Assembly: GCA_964402035.1 (NCBI GenBank)
Contig: CAYOAM010000003.1
Location: forward strand, 7,921-71,920
Direction: 5' to 3'
Origin: an uncultured Candidatus Saccharibacteria bacterium
Lineage (GTDB): Bacteria; Patescibacteriota; Minisyncoccia; Phycocordibacterales; UBA918
Length of the DNA: 64,000 bases
Each line of letters begins with the position of its first letter. Within the stretch, counting starts at the first letter, position 1. Below the pieces are notes generated by a model. The model was not told the origin of the DNA. It saw nothing but the letters and a program-made list of their open reading frames with translations, and searched no databases. Both the position numbers and the translations under genes were made by a program. Of the stretch, positions 13,046 through 37,525 are shown one piece after another.

Positions 13046-13092
13046 TATGGATATTAAGAGATATCGTCATGTATATAAAATAGAGTGAACAT

Positions 13093-13109
13093 CCAAGGTC
13101 CGGCCTTGG
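13093..13109. repeat. 17-bp palindromic repeat copy B (CCAAGGTCCGGCCTTGG)
   Basis: Read directly from the sequence. Confidence 0.9.
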
Positions 13110-13189
13110 ACAAGATTGTTATATTTTTACTACCAAGGGCAGCCCTTAGTAGAAGAGGCCTGTATAAAAACAACAAATGCCCCAGTATC

Positions 13190-22100: not shown

Positions 22101-22257
22101 TTCAGATTTCTGGAGCCCGCTTGCCTACACCATCATGTTCGGACTGGCCTTTGCGATGATTCTCACCTTGCTCCTTGTACCTACACTCTTCTATAGACAT
22201 GAGAAAAAAGTTCGCCAGAAAGCAACAAAAGCGATAACAGCATCGGGCAAGGCTTAA
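19132..22257 (+). CDS. RND efflux pump permease (AcrB/AcrD/AcrF family)
   Basis: 1041 aa with 12-TM topology and two large periplasmic loops. It lies 6 nt after the MFP gene. Confidence 0.9.
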   Translation: MHWLWNFFLDKRQFSVLFIVALIAIGTYAAFVIPKESAPEVIVPIGIVATVFPGTSASDIEQLITNKLEKKIGDVDNIDTLTSVSRDGVSIITAEFDASADINISIQELKDAVDAGKGELPQDAQDPVVTKVNFSNDPILIVAVSADLAPTEFTRLGEQVATELEAVAGVSQVTISGTQKREVQIVVRPDALRAYNLTLGDISQALRGANIEVPVGIVKNDGIEYAIRFEGSIENPTAIGDIPLASKGGQSIFMRDVALVINGVEQATTLSRVSVDGAPAENAMTLSIFKSAGSDVTAMAPAVRAKIDALTQPDALLADSQVLIVFDQGANVKKDLTDLTTTGFETVLLVVACLLLTIGWRESLVAALSIPLSFVIAFIGLYASGNTINFVSLFALILAIGILVDSGIVVTEAIHTRMRTLGDADKAAREAIREYAWPLIGGTMTTVAVFAPLFFLSGITGEFIASIPYTIIFVLVASILVALGMVPLIAIYLTKHGQSNRLEEMQEVYTHKAQAWYREKLIAFLQNIRAQRIFLWTLALAFFMTLTLPVLGLVNVVFFPPENVDNVYIEVETKQGTTLAETDLSLRAAEEILYELPYVESFTSTAGAGSVFTQSGNAGGKFGNISVTLSETRELRSQEVAILLREELRKITTADFKITEQSNGPPSGAPIVLKFIGGNLEDLALAADNAERLLASIPGTRDIEASTKNSATEIVLSIDHAKANAAGVSPFAVGETLRSAVFGITATTITENGDDVDIVVKLDVGPKTVDAGANPEITLTDLKNVSINTGNGSVLVGSIINEDLASARAAIVHEDEERLETVSAFTTPEVTTLEVTNAFKARESELKLPANVRISYGGETEDINRSFTEMFVALIAGLVLMLTILVLSFNSIRYSLYLLLAVPYSLIGVFIGLAITRQPLSFTSLLGVIALAGVIINHAIILMDSLIVRRDMRADDDLMLIVADGSVSRLRPIFLTTITTIVGMVPLSTISDFWSPLAYTIMFGLAFAMILTLLLVPTLFYRHEKKVRQKATKAITASGKA

Positions 22258-22457
22258 ATCAATCCCTCAAGACCTACACTATATGAACTCAGGAACGCAG
22301 GGATTGCAAACACTAATCCAATGAGTGGCAACACAACCACAATGACCGTGATCCAAAGCACTGCGAGAAAATATTTCCGACTCTTCTCTACTGATTGCCA
22401 AATAGCATCCAACTTTTGATCCTGCTCCTTTAAACGTTGATCTAATTCAGTATCCAT
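22254..22457 (-). CDS. Small membrane protein
   Basis: Trimmed to the internal Met (MDTELDQRLKEQ…). It has a single TM. Confidence 0.35.
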   Translation of the reverse strand: MDTELDQRLKEQDQKLDAIWQSVEKSRKYFLAVLWITVIVVVLPLIGLVFAIPAFLSSYSVGLEGLI

Positions 22458-22614
22458 ATACCAAAGTATAGCAACTTTGTGCCTATGGAACTCAGTACGC
22501 TGTCCACCCACCACGCTGATGATTTCACCAGCCGCTACTTGACAAAATACGGTACCTATGTATAATGCGGCATCAGCATTTTTTGGACAAAGCGCTATTT
22601 TCGGAGATATATCT

Positions 22615-23025
22615 ATGACACCCATACACTACATTTGTTCGCTTGTACTCCTAAGCATGCTCTATACAATGCCTGCCTTTGCAATATCGACACCCGAGAC
22701 ATTTTTTCTTGAAACAACAACTGCCCCGTCTGCAGTTTCAACACGCTTTGATAACACAAACTGGTTCACCTCTCTGCATCCAAAAGTAGCCACTTTTACC
22801 ATCTTCCCTGATGGTAGCGCAGAAGGTATGACGGTTAATGGCATCATATTCACGCAATACAACGTACCCAATAGTGCAGGGATTCGAGTGCAACGTTTTG
22901 AAATACAAGATCACTATCACTATATTGTTGAAGGAGATATCGTCGATAGTTTCGAAGAGTTCTCTGCAAGACTCGCTCTTGCATACCACGCACAAAAAGA
23001 AATGTCCGCAAAAACCAATACGTAG
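22615..23025 (+). CDS. Secreted hypothetical protein
   Basis: Internal Met start that gives a clear signal peptide (MTPIHYICSLVLLSMLYTMPAFA). Confidence 0.45.
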   Translation: MTPIHYICSLVLLSMLYTMPAFAISTPETFFLETTTAPSAVSTRFDNTNWFTSLHPKVATFTIFPDGSAEGMTVNGIIFTQYNVPNSAGIRVQRFEIQDHYHYIVEGDIVDSFEEFSARLALAYHAQKEMSAKTNT

Positions 23026-23038
23026 TATACTCAGATAT

Positions 23039-23461
23039 ATGGAACAGTACGAAGAAAAGACCCCCTATATCCCCCACTATTACGGAAACACCATCCGGCT
23101 ATTATTTTTAGGGTCGGCGTTGATATTACTGTTATCGGCGATGGTTGATAAAGAGCTTTTTGCTTTTTACCTTTTTATTGGGATATTTGTGGTCTTGGGT
23201 ATTGTTATATTGGCTGGCCTCACCAGTCCCAATACACGATTTTCAATAATTTCTGATACCGGTATTTCCGCAGTCTTATTTATATTTTTTGAATATTCAG
23301 CACTTATGACGAGCCCTGCAGTTAACGGTGGCGCATTTGATGCCGTGTTCCTGCTCCGCCAATTACTCGCTCTCATTTTTCTGCTTGCTCTCTATTTTAG
23401 TGTCAAAACCTGGCGCGGCATGAGCATAGAGAAACCCAAGGACGACACGCGACAGCTATAA
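23039..23461 (+). CDS. Hypothetical 4-TM membrane protein
   Basis: Trimmed to MEQYEEK to remove the overlap with the upstream ORF. Four hydrophobic helices. Confidence 0.45.
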   Translation: MEQYEEKTPYIPHYYGNTIRLLFLGSALILLLSAMVDKELFAFYLFIGIFVVLGIVILAGLTSPNTRFSIISDTGISAVLFIFFEYSALMTSPAVNGGAFDAVFLLRQLLALIFLLALYFSVKTWRGMSIEKPKDDTRQL

Positions 23462-23492
23462 GAAAACCGCATCCCTCGATGCGGTTTTCTTA
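23462..23492. terminator. Bidirectional Rho-independent terminator
   Basis: aaaaccgcatc-cctcg-gatgcggtttt, flanked by A-runs and T-runs between convergent genes. Confidence 0.7.
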
Positions 23493-23501
23493 TTACTATC
23501 A

Positions 23502-25244
23502 TTATTTGTTTACGACATCTGAAATATCAGCAATCTCTTTCATGAGACCTGTCTCAATCTGTGCAACACTTTCTTTAAGTCTTTTCAACAATTTGACTTC
23601 TTCGCGGGTTAACTTTCTTTTGGCGCTCGTCTTTTCTAGCATCTTGATATCGTCTTCAATATCAGATTGCATAAAGGCAAACGATTTTCGTACCAACGCT
23701 TGTGCCTCTGACACTTCTCCACGAATACGTTTTTTAAGATGCACACTACTTCTCCATCCATATACAAGTAGTAGCACAAGCATAAGAAGGAGTGCAAGGA
23801 GTGGTATCACAATCGAGAGTATGGTGATCATCATTGAATCGGTTCGCATGAGTACAGGCGCTACGACCGTAACATGTTTTGTTGCGCTCGGTAGACTCAT
23901 CGCACCACGAGCATCCTGTACGAAGACTGTGTATGAAAAGACACCAACATCGAGCTTTTGTTCAAGAGTAAAATATCCATCAACACCACTTTGACCTGAA
24001 AGGGGAATTGTGTCTCCTTTCTCCGACACCATATTCATCGTAACGGTACTATTTGGATATGTGGTACCTGAAACACGAAAGCGTTCACCTGCAACAATGG
24101 TTTCCGGAACGTCCGTTAGTACCGGTGTATCAATCGGATCAACAGTAAATTCAGCAGCAGCGGTACGATAGTTTCCTGTACGGTCGTACACTTTTGCAAT
24201 CACAATATGCTTCCCAAGAGGGACTACCGGTGTTCGATACTGCGTTTCGTCAGCACCATCAATCGTAACAACGTCTCCGGTATCAATTTGAAGTTCATAT
24301 GATGCAATACCTGAACCACCATCTGTGGCACTCAGTATAAAACCAGCCGTAGGATCAGTATGATCCTCTCGCGTAATAGGACTCAAATCAAAGCTCTCTG
24401 GCTTTCTCGTATCGATATGGAGTGGAAAATGGCTGACTGCACCCCACCCTTCACTGTTTCGCGCTTGCACATGAAAATATGAAATGCCGTCAGTAAGGTC
24501 AGTAATCTCTCGCTCCACAATGGGATTCTGGTAGACCACCGTTGGTATGCTTTCCGCTTTTGCATCAACGAGCGTACGAACACTGGTAACATCATTTTCT
24601 AGAGTCCACGCTAAGCGTGCGGTCGTATCTCGATACCAGGCTTTTGTATCTCCATGCGTTGTCGAGGTCACTTTTGGAGCAGCGGGAGTACCTGCATTAC
24701 TCGGTTCATTGGGAGCAATCTCCTCCTCTACCGCTTTCTCAATAAGCACAAACTGTGCCGTGCCTTTTTTTGAAAGTATGTCGGTACCCTCTCCGTCATT
24801 TGCAAGAGCAGCGGCATCTACAAAACTGAGTGAAGCGCTCCCTGCTTTTTTTACACGAAAATTAATCGTTACAATTTTCCCACTAGCACCGGTAAAACCG
24901 GGATTCAGTACTACTCCTTCAAACGACACCGTACCTGCAGTATTTACAAATACCGGCTCTTCTACCCACAATGAAATAATAGATTGGTTTTTTGAAATCG
25001 AGGTAACTTCCAATGTATCGGGTGGAAACGATACGACTCCTGAAAGCGCATTCACGGCACGATCGCTACTTGCTACATATACTGACACTGCAATGGGATC
25101 TCCAACAGTATACGTACCAGACGCTGGGACAAGTGAAAGATTCGCCGCTGATACAGATAGAGGCGCACAAAAGCAGAGAGCTACGATAATCAGACGGCTG
25201 ATCGACGTCGCCTTCGCAACATAAAAAGACAAAAGATCGCGCAC
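23502..25244 (-). CDS. Cell-surface protein with an N-terminal cohesin-like domain, Ig-like domains, and a C-terminal TM plus coiled-coil tail
   Basis: Signal peptide. Cohesin-like block (ANLSLVPASGTYTVGDPIAVSVYVASSDRAVNALSGVVSFPPDTLEV…SFEGVVLNPGF). The C-terminus has a TM (ITILSIVIPLLALLLMLVLLLVY) and a charged helical segment. Confidence 0.5.
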   Translation of the reverse strand: MRDLLSFYVAKATSISRLIIVALCFCAPLSVSAANLSLVPASGTYTVGDPIAVSVYVASSDRAVNALSGVVSFPPDTLEVTSISKNQSIISLWVEEPVFVNTAGTVSFEGVVLNPGFTGASGKIVTINFRVKKAGSASLSFVDAAALANDGEGTDILSKKGTAQFVLIEKAVEEEIAPNEPSNAGTPAAPKVTSTTHGDTKAWYRDTTARLAWTLENDVTSVRTLVDAKAESIPTVVYQNPIVEREITDLTDGISYFHVQARNSEGWGAVSHFPLHIDTRKPESFDLSPITREDHTDPTAGFILSATDGGSGIASYELQIDTGDVVTIDGADETQYRTPVVPLGKHIVIAKVYDRTGNYRTAAAEFTVDPIDTPVLTDVPETIVAGERFRVSGTTYPNSTVTMNMVSEKGDTIPLSGQSGVDGYFTLEQKLDVGVFSYTVFVQDARGAMSLPSATKHVTVVAPVLMRTDSMMITILSIVIPLLALLLMLVLLLVYGWRSSVHLKKRIRGEVSEAQALVRKSFAFMQSDIEDDIKMLEKTSAKRKLTREEVKLLKRLKESVAQIETGLMKEIADISDVVNK

Positions 25245-26056
25245 ACTATTAGTATACCGACAATTGTGTATTTCGTGATCTCAAATGTCTGTGGATGCAG
25301 TGGATAGACAATAGCGTTTCGCGTGTTACCCACTCGATCAATAGCACGCACATAAATCGTAGAACTAAGTTTTTGATTCTTCAATACATAAGGGCTTTCT
25401 GCCTCTCGCCACCAGCCAAAAACACCCTCCTTTACTTCGTAGTGATCAATACCTGAGCTTTTATCCTCTGTTGAAAAGACGAGAAAGTATGCCCCGTCAA
25501 ATACATCAGCGTCGCGCACTACTTCAGGTCGAAATGCTTCCGGGTCTTCATCGTCCATGACGACACCAGCTGCTGTGTGTGATGGTATACCTGCTCCAAT
25601 TACAATCGGACTTATCACCGGTGAAAAAGGAATCAGGGTTCCTAGACCATCGTTCTTGAGCAATTGCACCGCATCGAGTGTCACTGCTCCTTTACCCAAC
25701 GACTGCGCCTTAAAATAGAGTGTGACGACATCAACCTTCCCCATGAAACCACCGGGCGTAATACCAGAAAAATGTATACCTGCGGCGGTTGCTTCAGGTT
25801 TTGATACCCAAAAATTTAGTACGGACGCACTATCATCAAACCCTTCATACTGCAGCAAGGTTGCTGGATAGGTCATCACAGCCTCAAAAGCGTTTGCAGA
25901 AACATCCGTATCTATACTCAGCGTAACGGCAATGGTTTCTCCTACTGCCCCCTCCATAGGCAGAACAGTTATTTCGCTCGTTGCCGCAAACGATGGCTCA
26001 TATACAGCAAACCCGCCAATCACCAACATCGCAACATATGTGTAAAGTAAATACAT
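25190..26056 (-). CDS. Cohesin-like domain protein, C-terminally TM-anchored
   Basis: SEITVLPMEGAVGETIAVTLSIDTDVSANAFEAVMTYPATLLQYEGF…GIHFSGITPGGF, with a C-terminal TM plus RRRRR stop-transfer sequence. Confidence 0.5.
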   Translation of the reverse strand: MYLLYTYVAMLVIGGFAVYEPSFAATSEITVLPMEGAVGETIAVTLSIDTDVSANAFEAVMTYPATLLQYEGFDDSASVLNFWVSKPEATAAGIHFSGITPGGFMGKVDVVTLYFKAQSLGKGAVTLDAVQLLKNDGLGTLIPFSPVISPIVIGAGIPSHTAAGVVMDDEDPEAFRPEVVRDADVFDGAYFLVFSTEDKSSGIDHYEVKEGVFGWWREAESPYVLKNQKLSSTIYVRAIDRVGNTRNAIVYPLHPQTFEITKYTIVGILIVCAIFCLFMLRRRRRSAV

Positions 26057-26060
26057 ACAG

Positions 26061-27092
26061 CTATCCAGTCCAATAAAAGGCCATGATACTAAAGTCGATA
26101 ATATTTATGACACCATCACCATTGAGTTGTGCAGCCTCTCGAACGGAAAACGACTCACTAAGAGTACGCCGATACCAAAATGCAGCAATTGAAAAGTCGA
26201 TCAAGTTTACCGTGCAATCACCGTTTAGGTCTGCTTTCTTGACGCAGGCATTTGTGCCCACAGTCGCAACATTTTTAGACCCAACCTTAAAGGGTACCTC
26301 AATACTAAACGGGCTTATCTCACTACTGGTCGCCGAACGTGATTTTGTATGGTGATCCCCGAGCACCAACACTGCAGTATCAAAATTGTGCAGATAGGTA
26401 CCACGTACATCTGCAGGAGTCTGCACAAAAAACTGTTGCGGAGATTGTACTTCGAGTGTCACGGTCGAAGCTGGTACACTTTGTCCAAAAAAAGTGATGG
26501 GGTCACCACGACGCACTTCGCTTTTATCAGCGGAAAGTGTCGGCGCTATAAAAACTCCATCGATTTTTGTGAGTACATTGCGCGTGAGTGTAACATCATA
26601 CGGTAACGTTGCCGATCGTTGGTGATGTATGTCTTCGCTAAATAGTACAAAATGGTAACTACCTGACGAAAGTCCACTGATGGTTACCTGAAAATTTGCG
26701 AGTGAACTCGCCACGGTTTTTGCTACCCGTTGTCCATCTTTGAGGATCGTAATCGTGCTACCGGGGTAGGCTCTTCCTTCAAACACTATCGTGGCATTTC
26801 CATTTCCCCCGCTCGACCCGCCGCCACCTCCTCCACCGCCACCTCCTCCTGCTACGCAACTACTGGTATCAAGTTCGCACGCAGCTGTACAAGATAGCGA
26901 CCCCGAAGAAAATCCTTGAGATACACACGTCTTGCCGTCAAAATCCGAACCATCGCATGCTTCACCGACCTCAGCTATTCCATCACCACATCCTGGAACA
27001 ATAGCGACTATATCTACATCTTCCCCGTGGAGGGATATGGGTGCAATTAAGAAACATACTACAGAGAAACTGAGTAGAAAAAGATGACGCAT
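26061..27092 (-). CDS. Secreted dockerin-containing protein with a Myxococcus-type Cys-rich repeat and a poly-Gly linker
   Basis: Cys-rich repeat CGDGIAEVGEACDGSDFDGKTCVSQ…C. Linker of G11-SSGGNG. Two dockerin Ca-binding repeats at the C-terminus (DLNGDCTVNLIDFSIAAF… and LNGDGVINIIDFSIMAF). The start was taken at the internal Met that gives a signal peptide. Confidence 0.6.
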   Translation of the reverse strand: MRHLFLLSFSVVCFLIAPISLHGEDVDIVAIVPGCGDGIAEVGEACDGSDFDGKTCVSQGFSSGSLSCTAACELDTSSCVAGGGGGGGGGGGSSGGNGNATIVFEGRAYPGSTITILKDGQRVAKTVASSLANFQVTISGLSSGSYHFVLFSEDIHHQRSATLPYDVTLTRNVLTKIDGVFIAPTLSADKSEVRRGDPITFFGQSVPASTVTLEVQSPQQFFVQTPADVRGTYLHNFDTAVLVLGDHHTKSRSATSSEISPFSIEVPFKVGSKNVATVGTNACVKKADLNGDCTVNLIDFSIAAFWYRRTLSESFSVREAAQLNGDGVINIIDFSIMAFYWTG

Positions 27093-27102
27093 GAATACAA
27101 CG

Positions 27103-28053
27103 CTAGCGCGAAGCAACACTTCGCGCAATAATCCATTGATTATACTTACGAAGACTGAACCGACCTGCACCCAGCAACAAGATCACAATACTGAGTAATT
27201 GCCAAGGAATGATAAAGAAATGATAGCTATTTTGATTTTTGGTATCAGTAGTCCCCCACGACAAATCAAGCACGGCCGTGTACCAACCAAAATGAAAATC
27301 ACTCAATTGTCGCTTGGCTATAGCAAAAAAACCTTCAGCTTTTGGTTCCAATATTTTCCACGTTGATTCAAAGCGTCGAGCACTATTGGGCAAAACACTC
27401 CCTTCGCTCTCATTTGCTGAAAATGTAGTAACGGTACTTCTAAAACTATTTTTTACACCCACTGTTCCTCGCGGCACAATACGATCACCACCGGTGTTGT
27501 TTATGCGATACGAAAATGCAATAGGTAGCTGAGAAAAAAACCTGCCTCCCGGAGCATTAAACTCAAGAACACCACCCCCTTCTTCGATGTCTCCCGCAAC
27601 GCGCAAAAAGACCAAGACGCCAAGCCTTCCACCAATAGAAACTTCACCACCCTCTTGCGTTTTTGGATCTTGTCCACCAAAAAATACAGCAGCAAAATAA
27701 CCGCCCGGTTCAGTTTCTTTTGGTATCGTTATCGAAAGAGGAATCTTAATGCGCTCAAGTGGAGCAAGCGAGACACGACCTCCTGCTTGCATCCAGGTTG
27801 CGAGGCCGTCCTTCGCTCCGACAAAATACGGAGATCCAGTATCGCCGCTCGGTTCAAAATTTTCGTACGAGGGGTAAAATTCTTTTGGCTCGTTTTGTTC
27901 ATTGAGGAGTTCAATGTCAGTGTAGAGTGTCTGTCCTGGGTTCCCAGTTATTTCGATCTTTACGGGAGACAGTGTAAGCGCCTCGACGTGTGGCGCGTGT
28001 AAAATCACCGCACACACCACAAGACCAAAAAATATTCTAAAATTGTATTTCAT
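27103..28053 (-). CDS. Secreted beta-rich protein with a C-terminal TM anchor (accessory protein of the surface locus)
   Basis: Signal peptide, Gly-rich beta-strand pattern, C-terminal TM (HFFIIPWQLLSIVILLLGAG) and a basic tail. Confidence 0.45.
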   Translation of the reverse strand: MKYNFRIFFGLVVCAVILHAPHVEALTLSPVKIEITGNPGQTLYTDIELLNEQNEPKEFYPSYENFEPSGDTGSPYFVGAKDGLATWMQAGGRVSLAPLERIKIPLSITIPKETEPGGYFAAVFFGGQDPKTQEGGEVSIGGRLGVLVFLRVAGDIEEGGGVLEFNAPGGRFFSQLPIAFSYRINNTGGDRIVPRGTVGVKNSFRSTVTTFSANESEGSVLPNSARRFESTWKILEPKAEGFFAIAKRQLSDFHFGWYTAVLDLSWGTTDTKNQNSYHFFIIPWQLLSIVILLLGAGRFSLRKYNQWIIARSVASR

Positions 28054-28098
28054 GGAGTTTTCTCCATACTATAAGTATCGAGCAGAGAATGCAACCGA

Positions 28099-29172
28099 CT
28101 AATAATTGGCCGTTGCCGTGTATGTGAGGGTCGCGCTATAACTTCCTGCCTCTGTGTTTGAGCCAATGTTCGCAAGGTAGCGAGCTGAATAGGTAGTATT
28201 TGCGGTCGCTACCGTTGATGTAGCTACCGTATCAGGAAAAGCGCCAGAATCAAATGCAAAGCCCGAGGCCGCATACGGCGCATTGACCGCACCATTACCA
28301 CCTGCCGCTGTCAAACGCAGTCCGAACTGCTCAGTACCAACAGATGAGGCTGAGTTTGAGGCGCCAATTGCAGTAATCGTGTTCCCACCAGAGGTTAGGG
28401 TATTTCCGTTCAACGTGAGCGAATATCCATTACTTGCATTTGTGCCAACAATCAAATTGTGTGCCTCGACTTCTGATGTGTCACCCGACGCCGTACCCGA
28501 TGCGTATCGTGCAGCGCCAGAGGTCAATGTACCAAAACTGATGCTATTGTCTGAAATACTGAAGGTAATGGACTGAGCGACGGTAGCCGAAATAGCCACC
28601 TGGTCATCGTTCACAATACTGACGGTGATATCTCCAGAGTCAAAACCGTTACCACTTATGGCGATTCCGTATGACGTTGCCACGCTTGGATTGGTCGAAC
28701 TGGCGGCAGTAAAAGAGAAGATCAGTACATCATTGGGGTCGACAGCAGCTGCACCAATTCCATCGGTAGGTGCTGTGAAAGTCCACACACGGCCCTGTGT
28801 TCCTGTTGTAGCTACAGCCCAGCGTGATCCATCAGCAACACCATGCAACGTTTCTGTCGTCTCAAGACCAGTGGAAGGGCCATGGGTAAATGTCACCGAT
28901 GTAGTCGCCTTTCCCGTAAAGTTAAAATCCGATGGGAACGTAATAACAATGGTGTCGGTATTGTCGCTCGCACCTGTTGGGCTCGTGAATTTGATCGAGT
29001 GAGTCGATGTTGCAGGGCTAATCTTGGACGAGGACATTGTATCCGATGCGCTCGTTATTGATGCGGCATGAACGGTGACTCGTGGAAATACCCACGCTAC
29101 GAGCATAGCAATCACCAAGAGAGCACTCAAAGCAGCCCGACGAGAAAAAATATGGGTTACATTCATATGCAT
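28099..29172 (-). CDS. Secreted two-domain protein with a C-terminal TasA/camelysin-like domain (putative fibre/pilin-like subunit)
   Basis: The C-terminal 170 aa are homologous to the C-terminus of the giant protein. The motif ITFSISDNSISFGTL resembles the FFSDKEVSNNTFAAGTLDL motif of TasA/CalY. Confidence 0.5.
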   Translation of the reverse strand: MHMNVTHIFSRRAALSALLVIAMLVAWVFPRVTVHAASITSASDTMSSSKISPATSTHSIKFTSPTGASDNTDTIVITFPSDFNFTGKATTSVTFTHGPSTGLETTETLHGVADGSRWAVATTGTQGRVWTFTAPTDGIGAAAVDPNDVLIFSFTAASSTNPSVATSYGIAISGNGFDSGDITVSIVNDDQVAISATVAQSITFSISDNSISFGTLTSGAARYASGTASGDTSEVEAHNLIVGTNASNGYSLTLNGNTLTSGGNTITAIGASNSASSVGTEQFGLRLTAAGGNGAVNAPYAASGFAFDSGAFPDTVATSTVATANTTYSARYLANIGSNTEAGSYSATLTYTATANY

Positions 29173-29242
29173 AATATTATACGTATGATTATATGCTACT
29201 TACGCGATAAATTATGACAGCACGTTGGGATAACTGTTAATA

Positions 29243-32200
29243 CTAAAAAGTGGCAGTGACTGTGTAGGTAATCACCGAAGTATAATTCCCCGCCTCCGTC
29301 ATACTCTCTATATTCCCAAGATAATATGCATCATAGATCGTGGCTGTTCCATCACCATCACCGGTCCCAATCTCATCGGGGAACGAAGACGTCGCAAAAG
29401 CAAAGGTAGCTGCACTGTATGGTGGTGTCGAGAGCCCTGTCCCAGAAATGACATTGAGCCGCACGCCAAATTGCTCCGTCCCAGGGCTTGATATGGTGGC
29501 TGTTTCGCCAATAGGATTTATGGTAGCTATATCGTAGGTCAAGGTACTGCCATTTATTGACATGCGGTACCCACCCAGTGCATTGGTGACCACAGAAATG
29601 CTATGCGCTGGCTCACTCGGAGACGTTGTGCCAAGGATATCCCCCGTTGCGTAGCGTGCTTCGAGCGCTGAAAGAGTGCCAAAACCGACGGTATTATCGG
29701 ATATGCTCATAGTTATGTAGTTTTCAGGTTCTTTCTCAATCCACCGCACACTAACCATCGCAAAATCCCAGTCACGTCCCACTCCCCCAACCACGTTCGT
29801 TGAGACTGAGGTACGCAAACGCAAGTTCATCAAGTTGTTTTGGGTATCCACAAAGTCGTCTGCTGATTCTTGCTGCTCTGCGACACGCCACGTATCAAAC
29901 CAGCTGTACGATGTTGCGGCATTGGTATCGGTGCCCGGTGTGTTGATCCAGCCTGAACCAACCTCTTCACCTCCAAGACCTGAGTTGCCGGCATAGTCTT
30001 TCATCTGTACGTCATTGGTGAGTGACGCAATATTGGATCGATGCTTCACCGCATAGTGAATACCGGTAATAGAAGTCGAGGACGCCACCGTCATGGGAAA
30101 AGAGAGATTTTGCGAGAACGCATACTCGGCATTCACCGTATCGTCGTCATTGTCTTGTGGGTAGTGGTCGACGGGATATTCGATCGCTGTCGTTGCATTC
30201 CACGTTGAGGTCAACGTGGTGCCCGTGATCGCTTCAGCGGTACTGCGAGTTCTTGTACACTCAGATGCAGTACCACTTCCCCATGATATTTCGCAGAGTG
30301 CTGAATCAGTATTGACGGAACCCACCATCATATAGATGCGATCAAACTGAAGGTTCGCGAGTGCCGCAGGACCGTTGGTGGTAAAGCCCACGCGGACTTC
30401 ACCGGTTGGTGAGATGTAGTCATCAAAGACAAAGCCGGGTATCAAGGTGTCGTTGAAACTGAACGCAAGTTCGATATCAGTGGTACACGCTGAGGCGAAG
30501 ACCGTCGATGACGCTGCTGTCCACACACTGTTTTGAAAATCCCAAAGCGAAATGGAGAAACTTAATCCCGTATTGTTTTTGCACACCTCGGGCTGCACCA
30601 AAAAGGTGTTCATACCCGCAAGCGTCTTCACGTTGGTGAATGAGAAGTAGAAACTGATGGGGGTTGAGGTCGCAGCCATATACACAGTGAATTTGTTGCC
30701 ATCAGATCCAGTGAGTGTCGTACCGATAGCGCCCACGAGGTCTGAGATGAAGTTTGAACTTGTTGCGGCGGTCGTCGTCGCGAAGCCTGATGGTTCATAT
30801 ATGGGATCAATGGCAACTTCGAGCTGCGCAAAATCGGTTTGATGTGCAGTGACCGAATTCACGGTTGAGTAGGTGCGCACAATGACGCGCTTGCTTGATG
30901 TGGTTGAAGCGAAGTTTGAGAGTGGTGTACTAATGACCGTACCGGGAGTCACGGTGCGGGTGGAAAAATAGCCATTGTATATTTCATACGTGCGCTGGGT
31001 ATCGGAGGTGTTGGTGTGATTCGTGCGTCGTGGTTGGAGTGTGCGCCACCCACCACCGGTACATTCACTATCAGCAGCATTATCAACGCCGGTGCTTGAG
31101 ACCCAATCACAGATCTGATGGGTGTATGCATCACCGGTCGTAATGTTGGTGTCTTCAAGTGTGATGAGCATTTTGTTTGCGCCATAGAGGTTGACGCTAT
31201 CAAAATAGATTTGCTTGTCCAAGCCTGAGGTGGTGCGAGTTGCCGTCCAATAGTTGCCGTCGTTCCCCAAGGTCGCTCGCCACGAGTCGAGGTGGTTTAA
31301 GTTGGTCGAGGTCGCAACACCGACGATGAGGGCGCCACCGGTGGGGGCGTATTGGGAAGTCTCGGTTACACGGCGTGGTTCATCAATCCACCGCACACTA
31401 ACCATCGCAAAATCCCAGTCACGTCCCACTCCCCCAACCACGTTCGTTGAGACTGAGGTACGCAAACGCAAGTTCATCAAGTTGTTTTGGGTATCCACAA
31501 AGTCGTCTGCTGATTCTTGCTGCTCTGCGACACGCCACGTATCAAACCAGCTGTACGATGTTGCGGCATTGGTATCGGTGCCCGGTGTGTTGATCCAGCC
31601 TGAACCAACCTCTTCACCTCCAAGACCTGAGTTGCCGGCATAGTCTTTCATCTGTACGTCATTGGTGAGTGACGCAATATTGGATCGATGCTTCACCGCA
31701 TAGTGAATACCGGTAATAGAAGTCGAGGACGCCACCGTCATGGGAAAAGAGAGATTTTGCGAGAACGCATACTCGGCATTCACCGTATCGTCGTCATTGT
31801 CTTGTGGGTAGTGGTCGACGGGATATTCGATCGCTGTCGTTGCATTCCACGTTGAGGTCAACGTGGTGCCCGTGATCGCTTCAGCGGTACTGCGAGTTCT
31901 TGTACACTCAGATGCAGTACCACTTCCCCATGATATTTCGCAGAGTGCTGAATCAGTATTGACGGAACCCACCATCATATAGATGCGATCAAACTGAAGG
32001 TTCGCGAGTGCCGCAGGACCGTTGGTGGTAAAGCCCACGCGGACTTCACCGGTTGGTGAGATGTAGTCATCAAAGACAAAGCCGGGTATCAAGGTGTCGT
32101 TGAAACTGAACGCAAGTTCGATATCAGTGGTACACGCTGAGGCGAAGACCGTCGATGACGCTGCTGTCCACACACTGTTTTGAAAATCCCAAAGCGAAAT

Positions 32201-33178
32201 GGAGAAACTTAATCCCGTATTGTTTTTGCACACCTCGGGCTGCACCAAAAAGGTGTTCATACCCGCAAGCGTCTTCACGTTGGTGAATGAGAAGTAGAAA
32301 CTGATGGGGGTTGAGGTCGCAGCCATATACACAGTGAATTTGTTGCCATCAGATCCAGTGAGTGTCGTACCGATAGCGCCCACGAGGTCTGAGATGAAGT
32401 TTGAACTTGTTGCGGCGGTCGTCGTCGCGAAGCCTGATGGTTCATATATGGGATCAATGGCAACTTCGAGCTGCGCAAAATCGGTTTGATGTGCAGTGAC
32501 CGAATTCACGGTTGAGTAGGTGCGCACAATGACGCGCTTGCTTGATGTGGTTGAAGCGAAGTTTGAGAGTGGTGTACTAATGACCGTACCGGGAGTCACG
32601 GTGCGGGTGGAAAAATAGCCATTGTATATTTCATACGTGCGCTGGGTATCGGAGGTGTTGGTGTGATTCGTGCGTCGTGGTTGGAGTGTGCGCCACCCAC
32701 CACCGGTACATTCACTATCAGCAGCATTATCAACGCCGGTGCTTGAGACCCAATCACAGATCTGATGGGTGTATGCATCACCGGTCGTAATGTTGGTGTC
32801 TTCAAGTGTGATGAGCATTTTGTTTGCGCCATAGAGGTTGACGCTATCAAAATAGATTTGCTTGTCCAAGCCTGAGGTGGTGCGAGTTGCCGTCCAATAG
32901 TTGCCGTCGTTCCCCAAGGTCGCTCGCCACGAGTCGAGGTGGTTTAAGTTGGTCGAGGTCGCAACACCGACGATGAGGGCGCCACCGGTGGGGGCGTATT
33001 GGGATACCGCAAGCGCTTTCTTGCCCACCGTCTCCTCAAGCAGAACATGTTGTACTTCCTTCCCATTCATAATCCAACGATGGAGATACCCAGTCTCAGA
33101 GAGTGACGAAAACAAAGCAAGTATGGCTACCATACCCACCACCATGCCCACTTTTTTGATACACAGATGCGCTACCAT
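29243..33178 (-). CDS. Giant secreted repeat protein (1311 aa): 2 x 549-aa identical repeats plus a C-terminal TasA/camelysin-like domain
   Basis: N-terminal signal-anchor. Two identical 549-aa repeats (SQYAPTGGALIVG…DWDFAMVSVRWI). The C-terminus (ITMSISDNTVGFGTL…EAGNYTSVITYTVTATF) is homologous to 28099-29172. Confidence 0.7.
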   Translation of the reverse strand: MVAHLCIKKVGMVVGMVAILALFSSLSETGYLHRWIMNGKEVQHVLLEETVGKKALAVSQYAPTGGALIVGVATSTNLNHLDSWRATLGNDGNYWTATRTTSGLDKQIYFDSVNLYGANKMLITLEDTNITTGDAYTHQICDWVSSTGVDNAADSECTGGGWRTLQPRRTNHTNTSDTQRTYEIYNGYFSTRTVTPGTVISTPLSNFASTTSSKRVIVRTYSTVNSVTAHQTDFAQLEVAIDPIYEPSGFATTTAATSSNFISDLVGAIGTTLTGSDGNKFTVYMAATSTPISFYFSFTNVKTLAGMNTFLVQPEVCKNNTGLSFSISLWDFQNSVWTAASSTVFASACTTDIELAFSFNDTLIPGFVFDDYISPTGEVRVGFTTNGPAALANLQFDRIYMMVGSVNTDSALCEISWGSGTASECTRTRSTAEAITGTTLTSTWNATTAIEYPVDHYPQDNDDDTVNAEYAFSQNLSFPMTVASSTSITGIHYAVKHRSNIASLTNDVQMKDYAGNSGLGGEEVGSGWINTPGTDTNAATSYSWFDTWRVAEQQESADDFVDTQNNLMNLRLRTSVSTNVVGGVGRDWDFAMVSVRWIDEPRRVTETSQYAPTGGALIVGVATSTNLNHLDSWRATLGNDGNYWTATRTTSGLDKQIYFDSVNLYGANKMLITLEDTNITTGDAYTHQICDWVSSTGVDNAADSECTGGGWRTLQPRRTNHTNTSDTQRTYEIYNGYFSTRTVTPGTVISTPLSNFASTTSSKRVIVRTYSTVNSVTAHQTDFAQLEVAIDPIYEPSGFATTTAATSSNFISDLVGAIGTTLTGSDGNKFTVYMAATSTPISFYFSFTNVKTLAGMNTFLVQPEVCKNNTGLSFSISLWDFQNSVWTAASSTVFASACTTDIELAFSFNDTLIPGFVFDDYISPTGEVRVGFTTNGPAALANLQFDRIYMMVGSVNTDSALCEISWGSGTASECTRTRSTAEAITGTTLTSTWNATTAIEYPVDHYPQDNDDDTVNAEYAFSQNLSFPMTVASSTSITGIHYAVKHRSNIASLTNDVQMKDYAGNSGLGGEEVGSGWINTPGTDTNAATSYSWFDTWRVAEQQESADDFVDTQNNLMNLRLRTSVSTNVVGGVGRDWDFAMVSVRWIEKEPENYITMSISDNTVGFGTLSALEARYATGDILGTTSPSEPAHSISVVTNALGGYRMSINGSTLTYDIATINPIGETATISSPGTEQFGVRLNVISGTGLSTPPYSAATFAFATSSFPDEIGTGDGDGTATIYDAYYLGNIESMTEAGNYTSVITYTVTATF
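29746..33003. repeat. Perfect tandem direct repeat, unit 1647 bp, about 2 copies, in-frame within the giant gene
   Basis: Identical embedded ORFs lie exactly 1647 bp apart (30628-30831 = 32275-32478; 30949-31203 = 32596-32850). The sequence blocks are identical by eye (e.g. 29746… = 31393…). Confidence 0.9.
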
Positions 33179-33179
33179 A

Positions 33180-34748
33180 TTATTTCTCTACAATCGGATC
33201 AGACTCAATAACAAATGAAATGTCGTCAGGTTCTAGCGATACGTCATATGTTTCTTGCTCAAGTTGCAACTGTGTATCCCCACGAATTTCACGGGTCTGA
33301 GAAAACATTGTCCGCGCATTAGTATCAAAACCGACAAATGCACCCCCTTCTGCGGATGCCCAGATCACTTTCCCTTCTACATACTCAAACGGTGAATCAA
33401 GCAACATGGTTGTGTTGTCGGCGAGTTTTAAGAAACCAATCGCACTTCCGAGCGCATGCTCCTTGAGCCACGCTTCGGTACCACCTTCTCTTGTACGTAT
33501 AAAATAGAGCGTTTTCCCTTGATCTAATGGCTGTATTTGCGTTACAAATCCTCCCACGAAAAATAATCTTTCATGTACCACCATACGTTCTGCAGTATCA
33601 GTTTGAAAACGAAGCATGTGGGGACCTGGATCTACTAATGCTTGCAGCGTCACCGCATACGTATCTTCATCAATGCCGACCACGGTATGAGGGACAAGCA
33701 CTCCATCCACATACACCGTTGTTGATGCTTGTGGAGCAGGCGGAGTCGAAGCACTGGTGGTTGCGTTTGAAGAACTTGTAGCAGTTGTCTCAACGGTGTC
33801 AGGCTCATCATGAAGCACCTCTATATCTACTACCTCGTCACTGTTGGTCTGCACTGTTGTCTGATCGACCTCCTCGTGCTCAGTTTCAATCTGATCCACA
33901 GCATGCTCGACGTCACTATCACTTAGGTTCTGAATCGCAGGATCAGCTTCACTTTGTTCTATAGTCGAGACGGATTCCAGTGTGCCTACATCTACTGAAA
34001 CCTCGGCAGGCAACTCTTGAGGAATCTCCGCTAAAGCCGGCGAAGAATCTTCAGTGACTTCTTCTGGCGCTATATCTATGATCAAACTAAACAACGTCTC
34101 AACCGTTGGTTGCATAAACTCAATGACGGTCTGCGCAGCGTCAGAGACCATGTCTACTATGGTCTCTGCAGCGTCAGCAACCTGCGTAACAGTGTCTGAA
34201 ATGGTGCCTTGTATGGCAGCAAAGAATCCTTCTTTTGTGGTACTTCCTTGGTTAAAAATAAAAGTAGGCAGTGTACTCATCTCAAAAAACGCCGCATTCG
34301 CAATCTCGGCCTCAGAGTATAGTGTTGTGGTCGCAGATGTCGTTGCAATAGGCTGGGGTAACACCGCAATATCTTGTACGACGTCAGGCACTACCGGCAA
34401 CACCGGTTCCGATAGCACCGGCACAAGTTCCGCATCTTCAAAACCAACCTCCACATCACTATTGATTGGCAGATCAACATCATCTGGCGCGGAAGAGACT
34501 ATAAATTCACTCGGTTGCGATGGAGGATCAGCTATCGTTTCGGTGCCTTGTCCAATATCTTCCGCAACTGGAGGTATTTCATTCTCGGGTGCAATATCGA
34601 TGGGTGTCGTCTCTAGAGCAGGCGATGTCGCACCAACCTCTTCTATCTCTTCTGCATAAGTAAAAGAAACATAAAAAAAGTTGTACGCGAGTACCAGTAT
34701 CACGCATAACCACAGAAAAAAATTCTCCTTTCCTCGAAAGAAATTCAC
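33180..34748 (-). CDS. Extremely acidic secreted protein (Asp/Glu/Pro/Val-rich) with a folded C-terminal domain
   Basis: N-terminal TM/signal and about 350 aa of acidic low-complexity sequence. The C-terminal 170 aa form a non-repetitive domain. Its stop abuts the giant gene's start, suggesting an operon. Confidence 0.55.
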   Translation of the reverse strand: MNFFRGKENFFLWLCVILVLAYNFFYVSFTYAEEIEEVGATSPALETTPIDIAPENEIPPVAEDIGQGTETIADPPSQPSEFIVSSAPDDVDLPINSDVEVGFEDAELVPVLSEPVLPVVPDVVQDIAVLPQPIATTSATTTLYSEAEIANAAFFEMSTLPTFIFNQGSTTKEGFFAAIQGTISDTVTQVADAAETIVDMVSDAAQTVIEFMQPTVETLFSLIIDIAPEEVTEDSSPALAEIPQELPAEVSVDVGTLESVSTIEQSEADPAIQNLSDSDVEHAVDQIETEHEEVDQTTVQTNSDEVVDIEVLHDEPDTVETTATSSSNATTSASTPPAPQASTTVYVDGVLVPHTVVGIDEDTYAVTLQALVDPGPHMLRFQTDTAERMVVHERLFFVGGFVTQIQPLDQGKTLYFIRTREGGTEAWLKEHALGSAIGFLKLADNTTMLLDSPFEYVEGKVIWASAEGGAFVGFDTNARTMFSQTREIRGDTQLQLEQETYDVSLEPDDISFVIESDPIVEK

Positions 34749-34803
34749 CCACTAATCATAACAGCTGATGGTGGGTGGACGCTGTGTTATCAACGCACAA
34801 TAG

Positions 34804-35340
34804 CTAGTGTTCCTGCTGTCTACGAATAAATAACATTAAAACCGCAATCATCGCAAAGAGCGATACGGCCATCAAGGGAAATGTGATGTACCCAAACTCA
34901 AACACAATGCGTTCTGCACACTCGACCCCAGGAGCTGCGGTAGGACACACAATAAACGGCGAGCCGCCCATCTGCAAATAATGGTGATAGAGAGCGATCA
35001 CGCCTCCCACAAAAGACAGACCGAGAATATAATCTGCAATATTTTTATCATGCTTCCATAGTGCCATGCCTGAGAGGAGTGCTATGGGATAGAGTGCGAT
35101 ACGCTCAAACCAACACAAGCCACAGGGTGTAAAACCAAATACTTCTGAATACACCAAAGTCAGTATAATACCCGCGATCGATAGCAAAAATACTTTAAGA
35201 AGCGCAAATCTCCCCACAAAATTGCGAAGCTCGGTAAAATCAGCTTTTTTAAGTACGATAAAAAGCGCTACTGCACCGACCTGGAGACCAATGGTACCGA
35301 CCGCCAGTAGATAATTTATATCCGCTATGTAGTCAAGCAT
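34804..35340 (-). CDS. dsbB: Disulfide bond formation protein B (DsbB/BdbC family)
   Basis: 4 TM. First loop Cys pair CGLCWFERIALYP (compare E. coli DsbB C-x-x-C…YER). Second Cys pair CPTAAPGVEC. Confidence 0.7.
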   Translation of the reverse strand: MLDYIADINYLLAVGTIGLQVGAVALFIVLKKADFTELRNFVGRFALLKVFLLSIAGIILTLVYSEVFGFTPCGLCWFERIALYPIALLSGMALWKHDKNIADYILGLSFVGGVIALYHHYLQMGGSPFIVCPTAAPGVECAERIVFEFGYITFPLMAVSLFAMIAVLMLFIRRQQEH

Positions 35341-35345
35341 AGATA

Positions 35346-35720
35346 TTATTTCGGAAGCTCACAGCTTGTCGTTTCTGCAAGCTCTTTGAGTGTCAGCTCG
35401 CCACTCTTCCTCGTGCCATCCTTAAATATCCAGAGCGGATACCCTTCTACCTTTGCATCAATACACACTTGTGTCTGGTTCTTACGATCCGGGGTTGAAC
35501 ACTCAATATAGGGAAGTTTTTTTTGTGAGTTACCAAAGATTGCCTTTTGTGATTGGCAATGTGGACACCAAAATGCGCCATAGAACTTTGCTCCAGCATC
35601 AGTGAGACACTGCGCAAACCCATCAAGTTTTCCCGGCAATGTCTTCGTCCAAACGATGGTGCCAATAAAAAGGACAACCAATAGTATAAGCCCCACAAAC
35701 CATCCATATTTTTTGACCAT
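35346..35720 (-). CDS. Membrane-anchored thioredoxin-fold thiol-disulfide oxidoreductase (DsbA/BdbD-like)
   Basis: N-terminal TM. CxxC active site FWCPHCQSQ in a thioredoxin-fold context. Lies 6 nt upstream of the DsbB gene. Confidence 0.75.
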   Translation of the reverse strand: MVKKYGWFVGLILLVVLFIGTIVWTKTLPGKLDGFAQCLTDAGAKFYGAFWCPHCQSQKAIFGNSQKKLPYIECSTPDRKNQTQVCIDAKVEGYPLWIFKDGTRKSGELTLKELAETTSCELPK

Positions 35721-35763
35721 ATAGGAACTATACTACCCTAATAAACCCTCCCTTGTCCAAAAA

Positions 35764-36198
35764 CTACAAAAAGTAAAAGCCTATTACTGCGGCACCAATC
35801 CACCCCATCGTTGAAAGCGATCCGCTTAACAACAATGACAGACGTTCACGCGGCGCAAGGTCTGAAAACGGACGCTCGGTGGCTATAGGGGTCAAGCGAC
35901 CAATAAAAACACCATTCACGATAAGTACGAGCACAAAGCCCATTTTGATCAGAAAGGAAGGTTCGCTAATATAATATTCCCACGCAGGGAGTGCAAGTTT
36001 TAAGCCCGACGCAATCATAATGAGAAGTCCCGCCCACACCACGTAGTGCAGCAGCTCCATTTTTCTCTTATCGAGTAGCTGTTTTTTGCCTCGAAAATAC
36101 GAAAATGCCTCATGATCCGAGTAGAGTATGACGAGTGCCGTTATACCCAAAGTCCACAGATGTATAGTGACGGGATTCATAAATGCAGATACTACCAT
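35764..36198 (-). CDS. 4-TM membrane protein, first gene of the DsbB/Trx operon
   Basis: Hydrophobic profile only. Confidence 0.4.
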   Translation of the reverse strand: MVVSAFMNPVTIHLWTLGITALVILYSDHEAFSYFRGKKQLLDKRKMELLHYVVWAGLLIMIASGLKLALPAWEYYISEPSFLIKMGFVLVLIVNGVFIGRLTPIATERPFSDLAPRERLSLLLSGSLSTMGWIGAAVIGFYFL

Positions 36199-36301
36199 AT
36201 TAAAACGTTCACTTCATATTTTCACATATGAAGCTTTTCCTCCCCTTACAGCGTTTATACAATAATGAAATAAAGAATATATTGTATACGTATTAGAACA
36301 T

Positions 36302-37525
36302 ATGCAAAACGATAAACTATCCGTGCGGTATATCATCGTGAGTAGCGCACTTTCAGTGGTCATAACGTTATATATCCTTTGGCTGCTCACCATATATGTA
36401 CCGGAGAAGATCGCGAACATTCTTCACATTCCCACCACAACAGAGACACTTTCTGCTACCGAGTCTCATACGCAAGCAGCGATACCTGATATCGTTGAGC
36501 GCGCAGCACCAGCAGTCGTATCAGTGGTCATCTCTGCAAACGTCCCAGTCGTAGAACGCTACTTTGAAAACTATGATCCATTTAAGGATTTCTTCGGTGG
36601 AGGTTTTGGATTCCAAATCCCACAGCAGCGACAGATCGGGACAGAGAAACGAGAAATTGGCGGGGGGACCGGATTCTTTGTATCAAAAGATGGATACATA
36701 ATCACCAATCGTCACGTCGTCGATACAGAGAAAGCGGACTATTCAGTTGTCACCAACGAAGGGAAAACATACGATGTCGAGGTTATAGCAAAAGATCCAT
36801 CGCTCGATATTGCCGTACTCAAAGTAAAAAAGGCAGATCAAGAATTTCCCTTCCTCAGTTTTGGTGATAGTAGCGCATTGCGTCTTGGTTCGTCCGTCAT
36901 TGCTATCGGTAATGCGCTTGCAGAATTCCCGAATACGATATCCGTTGGCGTGATCTCTGGGCTCTCGCGACACATCACCGCAGGCGACCGTGGGGGAAAA
37001 ACTGAAAACCTTGACGGACTTATCCAGACTGATGCCGCAATAAACCAAGGGAACTCCGGTGGACCACTCCTTGATATGCAGGGTACGGTCATCGGTGTCA
37101 ATGTCGCCGTTGCTGGAAATTCAGAAAATATAGGATTCGCACTTCCCGTAGACATGGTCAAAAATGTGTACGCAAGTGTTGAGCAATTTGGCGAGATCAT
37201 CCGACCGTACATCGGCGTACGGTATGTAGACATAAACGAGGCTCTCAAAAAAGCAAACAATTTGTCAGTTGATTATGGAATACTCGTTATCCGTGGAGAA
37301 AACCGTACCGACCTTGCCGTCATACCCGGCTCCCCCGCTGACAAAGCAGGTATCGAAGAAAATGACATAATTCTTGAGATGGATGGAAAAAAACTTAACG
37401 GAAAGGAAAATTTTGCACAAATCATCCGCGATCATAACGTAGGTGATACCGTAACGCTCAAACTCCTCCATGATGGAAAGGAACGTGAGATCGAAGTGAC
37501 GCTCGAAAAAATGCCGAATGGGTAG
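36302..37525 (+). CDS. htrA: Serine protease HtrA/DegP family (trypsin-like + PDZ)
   Basis: N-terminal TM. Catalytic triad context (…TNRHVV…D…GNSGGPLLD) and a C-terminal PDZ. Confidence 0.9.
   Translation: MQNDKLSVRYIIVSSALSVVITLYILWLLTIYVPEKIANILHIPTTTETLSATESHTQAAIPDIVERAAPAVVSVVISANVPVVERYFENYDPFKDFFGGGFGFQIPQQRQIGTEKREIGGGTGFFVSKDGYIITNRHVVDTEKADYSVVTNEGKTYDVEVIAKDPSLDIAVLKVKKADQEFPFLSFGDSSALRLGSSVIAIGNALAEFPNTISVGVISGLSRHITAGDRGGKTENLDGLIQTDAAINQGNSGGPLLDMQGTVIGVNVAVAGNSENIGFALPVDMVKNVYASVEQFGEIIRPYIGVRYVDINEALKKANNLSVDYGILVIRGENRTDLAVIPGSPADKAGIEENDIILEMDGKKLNGKENFAQIIRDHNVGDTVTLKLLHDGKEREIEVTLEKMPNG

Follow-up and report, generated by a model that had tools for sequence, protein, structure and literature searches.

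Among the closest described counterparts of the protein considered here are the Periscope proteins and related repeat-bearing surface proteins of Gram-positive bacteria, such as SasG/Aap, Rib/alpha C and Sgo_0707 (PMC8201768). The protein is encoded on a stretch of 64,000 nucleotides (nt), hereafter the window, from an uncultured Candidatus Saccharibacteria bacterium (assembly GCA_964402035.1, contig CAYOAM010000003.1, positions 7,921 to 71,920), where one open reading frame (ORF) for a predicted adhesin-like pilus subunit contains two modules of 540 amino acids (aa) that are identical at the nucleotide level. Our reading, which we hold with a probability of about 0.82, is that an old two-module design is maintained by concerted evolution of the modules, through gene conversion within the gene or through unequal recombination. 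What the locus has in common with the Periscope proteins is the presence in a surface protein of tandem folded domains near-identical in DNA, a condition attributed to intragenic recombination. Length variants between near-identical strains may be a further common trait, as forms of different length are seen here between assemblies, with collapse possible. The differences are nonetheless clear. The repeated element is present in two copies and is a multi-subdomain module of 540 aa (up to about 965 aa in relatives), not a small stalk domain, and the modules are presumed binding heads instead of a rod projecting a separate head. Indeed, no distinct N-terminal ligand-binding domain was found ahead of the modules, just a signal or anchor and a spacer of around 25 aa. 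In addition, a conserved unique linker lies between the copies, the C-terminus carries a pilin domain and no LPXTG wall anchor, and in many species the modules have diverged to 52-81% identity.

A second point of comparison is the Pam pilus, described in 2026 as a filament specific to the Candidate Phyla Radiation (CPR) that is assembled by donor-strand exchange and includes the pilins PamA/B/E/T, the membrane-anchored PapD-like chaperones PamC/D and the RbmA-like anchor PamR (bioRxiv 10.64898/2026.03.03.709456). Pam components are represented in NCBIfam by the models NF058581 and NF058579. The locus shares with this system a C-terminal domain that matches the Pam pilin C model, a neighbouring pilin that matches it more strongly, a neighbouring membrane-anchored protein with two beta domains whose predicted fold resembles those of RbmA and the chaperones, if less closely than that of WxLIP, N-terminal hydrophobic leaders on all the proteins, and the CPR lineage. 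On the other hand, the pilins known from that system begin with a sandwich of nine strands and ordinary size, and the paper reports neither a subunit with 540-aa modules resembling carbohydrate-binding modules (CBM) nor any repeat homogenisation, and it places Pam mainly in Saccharimonadia and Microgenomatia (bioRxiv 10.64898/2026.03.03.709456). The relatives found in the present analysis are labelled Parcubacteria/Paceibacterota, Doudna-, Falkow- and Magasanikbacteria, among others.

FimH and PapG are two-domain chaperone-usher tip adhesins in which a receptor-binding N-terminal part is followed by a C-terminal pilin domain with an incomplete immunoglobulin fold. The analogy with them is architectural, as it concerns a head joined to a C-terminal pilin domain and an operon that also encodes a pilin and a PapD-like protein, whereas the present protein has no sequence or fold match to the lectin domains of FimH or PapG, two heads versus one, and no outer-membrane usher. 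Finally, in the concerted evolution known from tuf and rRNA operons, the copies of one genome resemble each other more closely than they do their orthologues in other genomes, which is also the case here, together with mosaic tracts and the bimodal identity expected by models in which conversion needs high identity. The difference is that the copies are adjacent within one ORF, and therefore the same recombination also yields in-frame length variants. All in all, the locus belongs with the recombination-homogenised surface-protein repeats (Periscope, Rib, SasG) and with classical concerted evolution, and is not a new kind of system.

Repeat Anatomy and the Inter-Module Linker

When each base of the window is compared with the one 1647 nt further on, identity holds for every position from 29736 to 31357, with no other run of at least 15 nt. 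The two copies (29736-31357 and 31383-33004) are 1622 nt long and 100% identical, and their period of 1647 nt corresponds to 549 codons, so that the repeat is in frame within the minus-strand ORF at 29243-33178. Read along the plus strand, the order is X (up to 29735), A (29736-31357), a joint j (31358-31382), A' (31383-33004) and Y (from 33005 on). A preliminary description of this DNA had proposed a 1647-bp head-to-tail duplication at 29746-33003; the identity of the copies holds, but their extent has to be revised to 29736-33004, with copies of 1622 nt separated by a joint of 25 nt. Three pairs of ORFs in spurious frames (30628/32275, 30657/32304 and 30949/32596) are exactly 1647 nt apart, as had been stated for embedded ORFs, while the label of giant surface protein does not suit a product of 1311 or 1296 aa, an ordinary size for the family. 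A repeat finder returned the same pair of copies (its reported lengths being at most 300 nt), and Tandem Repeats Finder (TRF) missed it because its longest period was 500.

The joint reads AGTCTCGGTTACACGGCGTGGTTCA. It resembles neither the 25 nt preceding the copy at 29736-31357, with agreement at 9 of 25 positions, nor the 25 nt that follow A' (33005 on). Within the window it is unique with up to 3 mismatches allowed, and a match was obtained in 0 of 100 shuffles. The possibility of a templated filler was considered and dropped, given that neither strand of the window has a second occurrence of any 11-mer or longer word of the joint and that the few 9-10-mers are at chance level. The homology of the joint to a linker makes this question moot. 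Indeed, the motif of the linker in the clade of the window is E-E-P-x-R-V-T, represented by DEPRRVTET in the window, EEPKRVTVT in L010, EEPNRVTIT in L011, EEPARVTLI in L016, EEPNKVTVRR in L013, EETNRRTLI in L012, NEQSRVTLR in L009, EEPNRITIT in P0045 and EEANRVTLS in P0046 (L numbers denote loci and P numbers proteins of the family). The linkers of L009-L016, P0045 and P0046, which belong to relatives that are around 50-62% identical, are homologous to that of the window, in length as well as in sequence. As judged from these alignments, the joint is the old inter-module linker and not filler at a new junction.

The two-module layout extends well beyond this clade. GTDB species representatives scanned with the family alignment yielded 62 loci across Patescibacteria, most of which have two units in tandem by tblastn of the 540-aa unit. 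Thirty GTDB loci passed a strict filter for two modules within a single ORF, in most cases spaced by 27-33 nt, the spacing in the window being 27 nt. In parallel, an exhaustive phmmer search of 1.84 billion representatives returned 130 family members, and of the 63 that reach 1000 aa or more, 59 align to the unit in at least two separate stretches. In L025/L030/L038, L035/L039 and L040/L041 the modules group by position (U1 with U1 and U2 with U2), elsewhere by genome; position-wise clustering in three clades implies that the duplication predates those splits. Thus, two modules are the norm in the family, and the layout is old.

These data bear directly on the suggestion, made in the preliminary description, of a very recent duplication, that is, the de novo tandem duplication of a one-module gene with the 25 nt as filler at a novel joint. 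The identity of the copies, the existence of a one-module version at 99.9% flank identity and the lack of a nearby template for the 25 nt all speak for it, as did a first protein search that gave proteins of about 750 aa alone. That search, which listed proteins of 733-920 aa only, led to the notion that all homologues are one-module, which proved wrong, as cluster representatives masked the two-module members. In particular, P0001 (747 aa) represents a 90% cluster that also contains the 1296-aa form, and the impression of a lineage-specific duplication arose because short forms represented the clusters. The joint is instead homologous to the linker of two-module relatives only 50-62% identical, the same 9-aa linker at the same boundary in many species is unlikely to result from independent duplications, and sister lineages keep the architecture through 11% DNA divergence. 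A recent duplication is therefore very unlikely, since the linker is conserved, two modules are the norm and the duplication predates several splits.

Two further observations concern the family at large. Representatives of 747, 769, 761 and 777 aa conceal members of 1296-1335 aa in clusters at 90% identity. A distant subfamily (L059 6017-11782, L066 6019-11785, L068 2569-8343 and L070) has modules of about 2.9 kb, with an insertion of about 1.3 kb after unit residue ~375, again in two copies, which are 99.97-100% identical and have periods of 2895-2913 nt.

Evidence for Concerted Evolution of the Modules across Species

The nucleotide identity of the two modules within a gene is bimodal: 7 of 31 pairs are at least 95% identical, 24 are at 52-81%, and none falls at 82-95%, the upper group lying at 96-100%. 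Near-perfect intragenic repeats with an anatomy like that of the window are present in nine other species representatives (repeat length/period in nt: L010 1641/1665, L011 1618/1647, L016 1577/1605, L034 1514/1626 at 97.9% identity, L037 1564/1587, L042 1604/1692, L059 2871/2895, L066 2872/2895 and L068 2862/2913), and all nine periods are divisible by 3. Between the copies lies a stretch outside the repeat, of 23-29 nt in six of the nine loci; in L034, L042 and L068, whose units have diverged at their edges, it is longer, at 51-113 nt. Mosaic genes are also found. L020 has a perfect tract of 641 nt within modules that are otherwise 50-70% identical, L026 a perfect tract of 412 nt inside diverged modules, and L034 a perfect core of 1400 nt with edges that are 70-80% identical. 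Such tracts are known from the relatives, while in the window the tract spans the whole unit.

In many loci, copies also resemble each other more than they resemble modules of other loci. The nearest neighbour of a module is its partner in the window and in L009-L013, L016, L020, L022, L024, L026, L028, L029, L034, L037 and L042-L044. The sister pair formed by L010 (P0035) and L071 (P0038, GCA_964430715.1) is particularly informative, as their modules differ at 185-186 of 1635 nt, with 184 of the differences (137 of them synonymous) common to both modules, while the copies within each gene differ at 0 and 3 positions. Between the same two loci there are differences at 8 of 30 nt in the linker and at 117 of 672 nt in the remainder of the gene. 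When the window is compared with L010, 45% of the codons with a conserved amino acid differ synonymously, as opposed to 0 between the modules of the window, thus indicating homogenisation at the DNA level and not a constraint at the protein level. The ongoing gene conversion that had been put forward as one option for the window is supported by the bimodal identity of the modules, the mosaic tracts in relatives and the sharing of 184 of the 185-186 differences between sisters.

Conversion tracts in a pilus protein might also recall antigenic-variation cassettes of the pilE/pilS style or a diversity-generating retroelement (DGR), in which one module would diversify the other, and DGRs are common in CPR bacteria. 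Here, however, the two modules belong to a single translated ORF and become identical, not diversified. No further copy of the module exists in the 64-kb window (of a 461-kb contig), neither a reverse transcriptase nor a template/variable repeat pair was seen, and the tracts of 0.4-2.9 kb are far above the length of DGR repeats, which makes this the least likely of the explanations weighed. Apart from the modules, L051 contains a perfect direct repeat of 542 nt (11825-12366 and 13040-13581, spacing 1215 nt) that covers the C-terminal domains of two adjacent pilin-type genes, and homogenisation therefore also acts between neighbouring pilin paralogues.

Evidence from Public Assemblies

All assemblies involved appear to be short-read, with inserts too short to span the 1.6-kb repeat. 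ERZ3430527 NODE_4 (461.7 kb, 20.5x coverage) matches the window at 100% identity, and ERZ3430528 NODE_7189 (6.9 kb, 5x) has the same two-copy gene including the joint, with one single-nucleotide polymorphism (SNP) located outside the repeat. The ERZ assemblies were produced by SPAdes. A contig from a k=31 unitig-based assembler, Logan SRR7369924_114967, follows the window at 100% identity for 11.7 kb and breaks off at window position 32975, having entered A' by exactly 30 nt (k-1). This break is the signature of a branch in the graph, with Y and j both leading into the repeat. Exact scans for the joint in GTDB representative genomes and JGI metagenomes gave no match, so the species of the window lies outside those collections.

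An assembly artefact, in which the genome has one module and a graph loop was wrongly expanded or overlapping contigs were joined, is what the use of short-read SPAdes assemblies, a sister sample that assembles to one module and the lack of the joint in the GTDB-representative and JGI collections could suggest. Such a loop would nevertheless need reads that join the end of the module to its start through the 25 nt, which are a conserved linker. Moreover, the joint recurs in the assembly of a second sample that carries 1 SNP elsewhere, a different assembler breaks exactly k-1 inside the repeat, and the same architecture is present in relatives whose modules, being diverged, leave no ambiguity in the assembly. 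As far as the architecture is concerned, the artefact that had been raised as an option is thus highly improbable.

A different possibility is that the array has more than two modules, or that the population is a mix of 1, 2 and 3 or more, i.e. a variable-length locus of the Periscope type of which the minimal loop was assembled. In its favour, recombination between exact repeats is easy, four species clusters contain both one- and two-module forms, and short reads cannot count copies. In species whose modules have diverged enough to assemble unambiguously there are, by contrast, always two, and none of the 130 family representatives has three full modules in one protein, a few having 3-5 partial stretches. 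We therefore regard a longer or mixed array as unlikely.

Several points weigh against concerted evolution of two modules as we propose it. A 1.6-kb exact repeat is a loop in the assembly graph that is traversed the minimum number of times, and the genome of the window could have more than two copies. Differences deep in the interior of the repeat could have been merged by bubble popping; in the homogenised species the residual mismatches between copies all lie within about 110 nt of a unit edge, save one at 194 nt. Mismatches near the edges fit a limit of read phasing and an edge effect of conversion equally well. The perfect identity of the copies is thus an upper bound, whereas their near-identity can be relied upon, since an assembler would resolve modules that differ by a few percent into separate paths. 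Furthermore, the one-module contig described below, at 4.2x and with a suspicious cluster of SNPs, could be a collapse instead of an allele, the match of the adhesin to the pilin model is marginal, 0.5 bit above the curated cut-off, and the recombination genes and the mechanism behind homogenisation are ones that we infer. As a separate observation, the contigs of L014, L023, L033, L036, L045, L054, L057, L064, L065 and L067 terminate within a module or at its boundary, as would be expected from the fragmentation of short-read assemblies by identical modules, and the true frequency of homogenised pairs is probably underestimated.

One-Module and Two-Module Forms

Some near-identical (90%) protein clusters contain both forms of the protein, as is the case for 4 of 11 (P0001/P0032; P0007 and P0036 with P0035 and P0038; P0009/P0045; P0010/P0046). 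The flanks of one- and two-module forms are 99.7-99.9% identical. The form closest to the window is ERZ3430525 NODE_2614 (16.4 kb, 4.2x), which is 99.93-99.98% identical over window positions 19243-37093, reads X-A-Y and encodes the 747-aa one-module P0001. Over the 12 kb compared, it differs from the window at 8 positions, namely 3 synonymous SNPs and a cluster of 5 changes within 88 nt (window 24301-24388), in the gene at 23502-25244 on the minus strand, for which L001/L008 served as comparison. The cluster turns S315 and E293 into stops, so that a 580-aa cohesin-like protein with a transmembrane (TM) anchor is split into ORFs of 292 and 229 aa; it is either a pseudogenised allele or an error due to low coverage (4x). 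A further case is P0010, whose one-module form is found on a 10-kb Logan contig that is unbroken at the module, while its two-module counterpart P0046 has a perfect repeat of 1648 nt with a period of 1674, the flanks of the two being 99.7-99.8% identical.

The co-occurrence of the two forms suggests contraction, with assembly collapse possible for some of the low-coverage cases. The variation in copy number that had been anticipated is therefore present at the level of assemblies, in a sister-sample contig that is 99.9% identical and has one module and in three further mixed clusters.

The Gene Product and Its Pilus Context

Table 1. Position and description of the adhesin-like gene, its parts and the adjacent genes (window coordinates).
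Feature	Position	Strand	Description or basis
Adhesin-like pilus subunit gene	29243..33178	-	ORF list and translation; 1311 aa from ATG 33178
N-terminal region	33005..33178	-	Basic n-region, hydrophobic helix, ~25-aa spacer to KKALAV; unrepeated
Module 1, N-proximal, 540 aa, SQYAPTGG...SVRWI	31383..33004	-	100% identical to 29736-31357 over 1622 nt; tblastn unit 100%
Inter-module linker (25-nt joint)	31358..31382	-	With flanking partial codons encodes D-EPRRVTET
Module 2, C-proximal, 540 aa	29736..31357	-	Identical to 31383-33004
Second linker EKEPENY and pilin-type C-terminal domain, ~157 aa	29243..29735	-	NF058581 match; AlphaFold2 (AF2) predicted local distance difference test (pLDDT) ~90
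Downstream pilin gene (product p357), 355-357 aa	28099..29172	-	NF058581 80.4 bits (cut-off 55); weaker match to the PamT model
Membrane-anchored two-beta-sandwich protein p316, 316 aa	27103..28053	-	AF2 pLDDT 82
Operon gene upstream of the adhesin; acidic product of 522 aa without family match	33180..34748	-	
DsbB-family disulfide oxidoreductase	34804..35340	-	Pfam DsbB 52.9 bits

Public gene calls start at 33133 and give a protein of 1296 aa (P0032), which occurs in exactly this form on ERZ3430527 NODE_4 and ERZ3430528 NODE_7189. Homologues open with a similar M..FFKK and a hydrophobic N-terminus, and the longer start (33178) is therefore favoured. Going by the sequence, the hydrophobic helix of the N-terminal region is probably a Sec signal or an anchor; residues 1-46 of P0001 are of low confidence in the AF2 model. 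A signal-peptidase site between ALA and V just ahead of module 1, which would lie around 58 aa from the likely start, was considered and dropped. The module appears to be made of CBM-like jelly rolls, in the form of several beta-sandwich subdomains, and its residues Cys126 and Cys142 are nearly invariant. Pfam returned for the adhesin a sub-threshold Baseplate_wedge match alone, and sequence searches of the PDB gave no match for either the adhesin or the pilin. We take the protein to be an adhesin-like pilus subunit with two heads that would bind glycans. Its position at the tip of the pilus would be a guess, drawn from the analogy with FimH and PapG.

The connection with Pam comes from the last ~130 aa of the adhesin, which match NCBIfam NF058581 (CPR_Pam_pilin_C) at 55.5 bits with a cut-off of 55, and from the neighbouring genes. 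The product of the downstream pilin gene combines a small N-terminal beta domain with a Pam-pilin C domain, and its C-terminus is 49% identical to the C-terminal 157 aa of the adhesin. The model of p316, a member of a highly conserved family with more than 500 homologues at 50-58% identity, starts with a signal helix, continues with two beta-sandwich domains and finishes with a TM helix at the C-terminus. In Foldseek its best matches are WxLIP 9i1y/9i25 (E 8e-12), and RbmA 4kkp and the chaperones CfaA 4ncd/6k73 and CsuC 6fqa are also found. No NCBIfam or Pfam match was obtained for p316, and Pfam at E up to 10 was uninformative for p316 and p357. Its model makes p316 a candidate counterpart of either the pilus chaperones PamC/D or the anchor PamR, two classes between which the model does not discriminate. 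WxLIP, the WxL-interacting protein of surface loci in Enterococcus faecium, outranks RbmA and the fimbrial chaperones for p316, and this structural likeness hints that the Pam operons of CPR may be related to the WxL loci of Firmicutes.

Upstream, genes of 527, 504 and 504 aa precede the adhesin in L071, L072 and L073, respectively, and are like the 522-aa protein in size and position. A thioredoxin-like gene, identified by a weak match, lies further upstream of the DsbB gene. The presence of DsbB is consistent with a disulfide-bonded secreted pilus protein, and Pam pilins are reported to contain disulfides (bioRxiv 10.64898/2026.03.03.709456).

Other features of the window lie close to this operon. 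TRF had a single match in the window, at 26821-26849, where a 15-nt unit is present in 1.9 copies and codes for part of a poly-Gly run (GGGGGGGGGGG). The match lies in the gene at 26061-27170 on the minus strand, whose product carries a dockerin-type domain at its C-terminus (24.8 bits against a cut-off of 22.9). Weak cohesin-like matches of the next two genes suggest a surface assembly in the style of cohesin and dockerin beside the pilus genes. An HlyD-type membrane-fusion protein (17590-19125) and a 1041-aa AcrB-family transporter of the resistance-nodulation-division (RND) type (19132-22257) adjoin the surface-protein operon, a pair that is notable in a presumably monoderm Patescibacteria genome. 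The Rfam scan returned a tRNA-Gln alone.

Proposed Mechanism

The gene product would be a secreted subunit of a Pam-type CPR pilus, composed of two putative binding modules of 540 aa, a linker and a pilin domain. Recombination between the modules, by non-reciprocal gene conversion and/or unequal exchange between sister strands, would presumably depend on RecA. Homogenisation would span the whole homologous length, so that the non-homologous linker and flanks alone stay different. The process may also be self-reinforcing, since identical modules would recombine easily and stay identical, while modules that have drifted apart would escape conversion, and such self-reinforcement would account for the bimodal identity across species. 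In addition, recombination between identical direct repeats of 1.6 kb would delete one module and the linker in frame, giving a one-module allele irreversibly; the one-module contigs would then be true alleles.

Significance for Host Attachment

CPR/Patescibacteria live attached to host cells, and the description of their attachment machinery is just beginning. The locus adds a candidate receptor-binding subunit of a Pam-type pilus, which is very large and has two heads. It also comes with a warning, as short-read metagenome-assembled genomes and protein clusters at 90% identity systematically hide or collapse the two-module architecture.

More tentatively, and with the odds against it, one can imagine that CPR episymbionts have in this family a pilus adhesin with two heads for which recombination is an evolutionary switch, such that heads whose identity has dropped below roughly 80% escape conversion and can specialise separately. 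If this were true, a change of receptor specificity in one of two identical heads would be either erased or copied to both, and the locus would frequently and irreversibly yield one-headed alleles, i.e. a phase or length variation affecting the attachment to the host. It would also provide a phylum-wide natural system for studying the escape from gene conversion together with the evolution of host range in Patescibacteria.

Collectively, evolution of the two heads is concerted in part of the species and separate in the rest, and strains that are nearly identical include apparent one-headed variants, thus offering a clean natural series for testing sequence-dependent models of gene conversion and concrete candidates for the determinants of host specificity.

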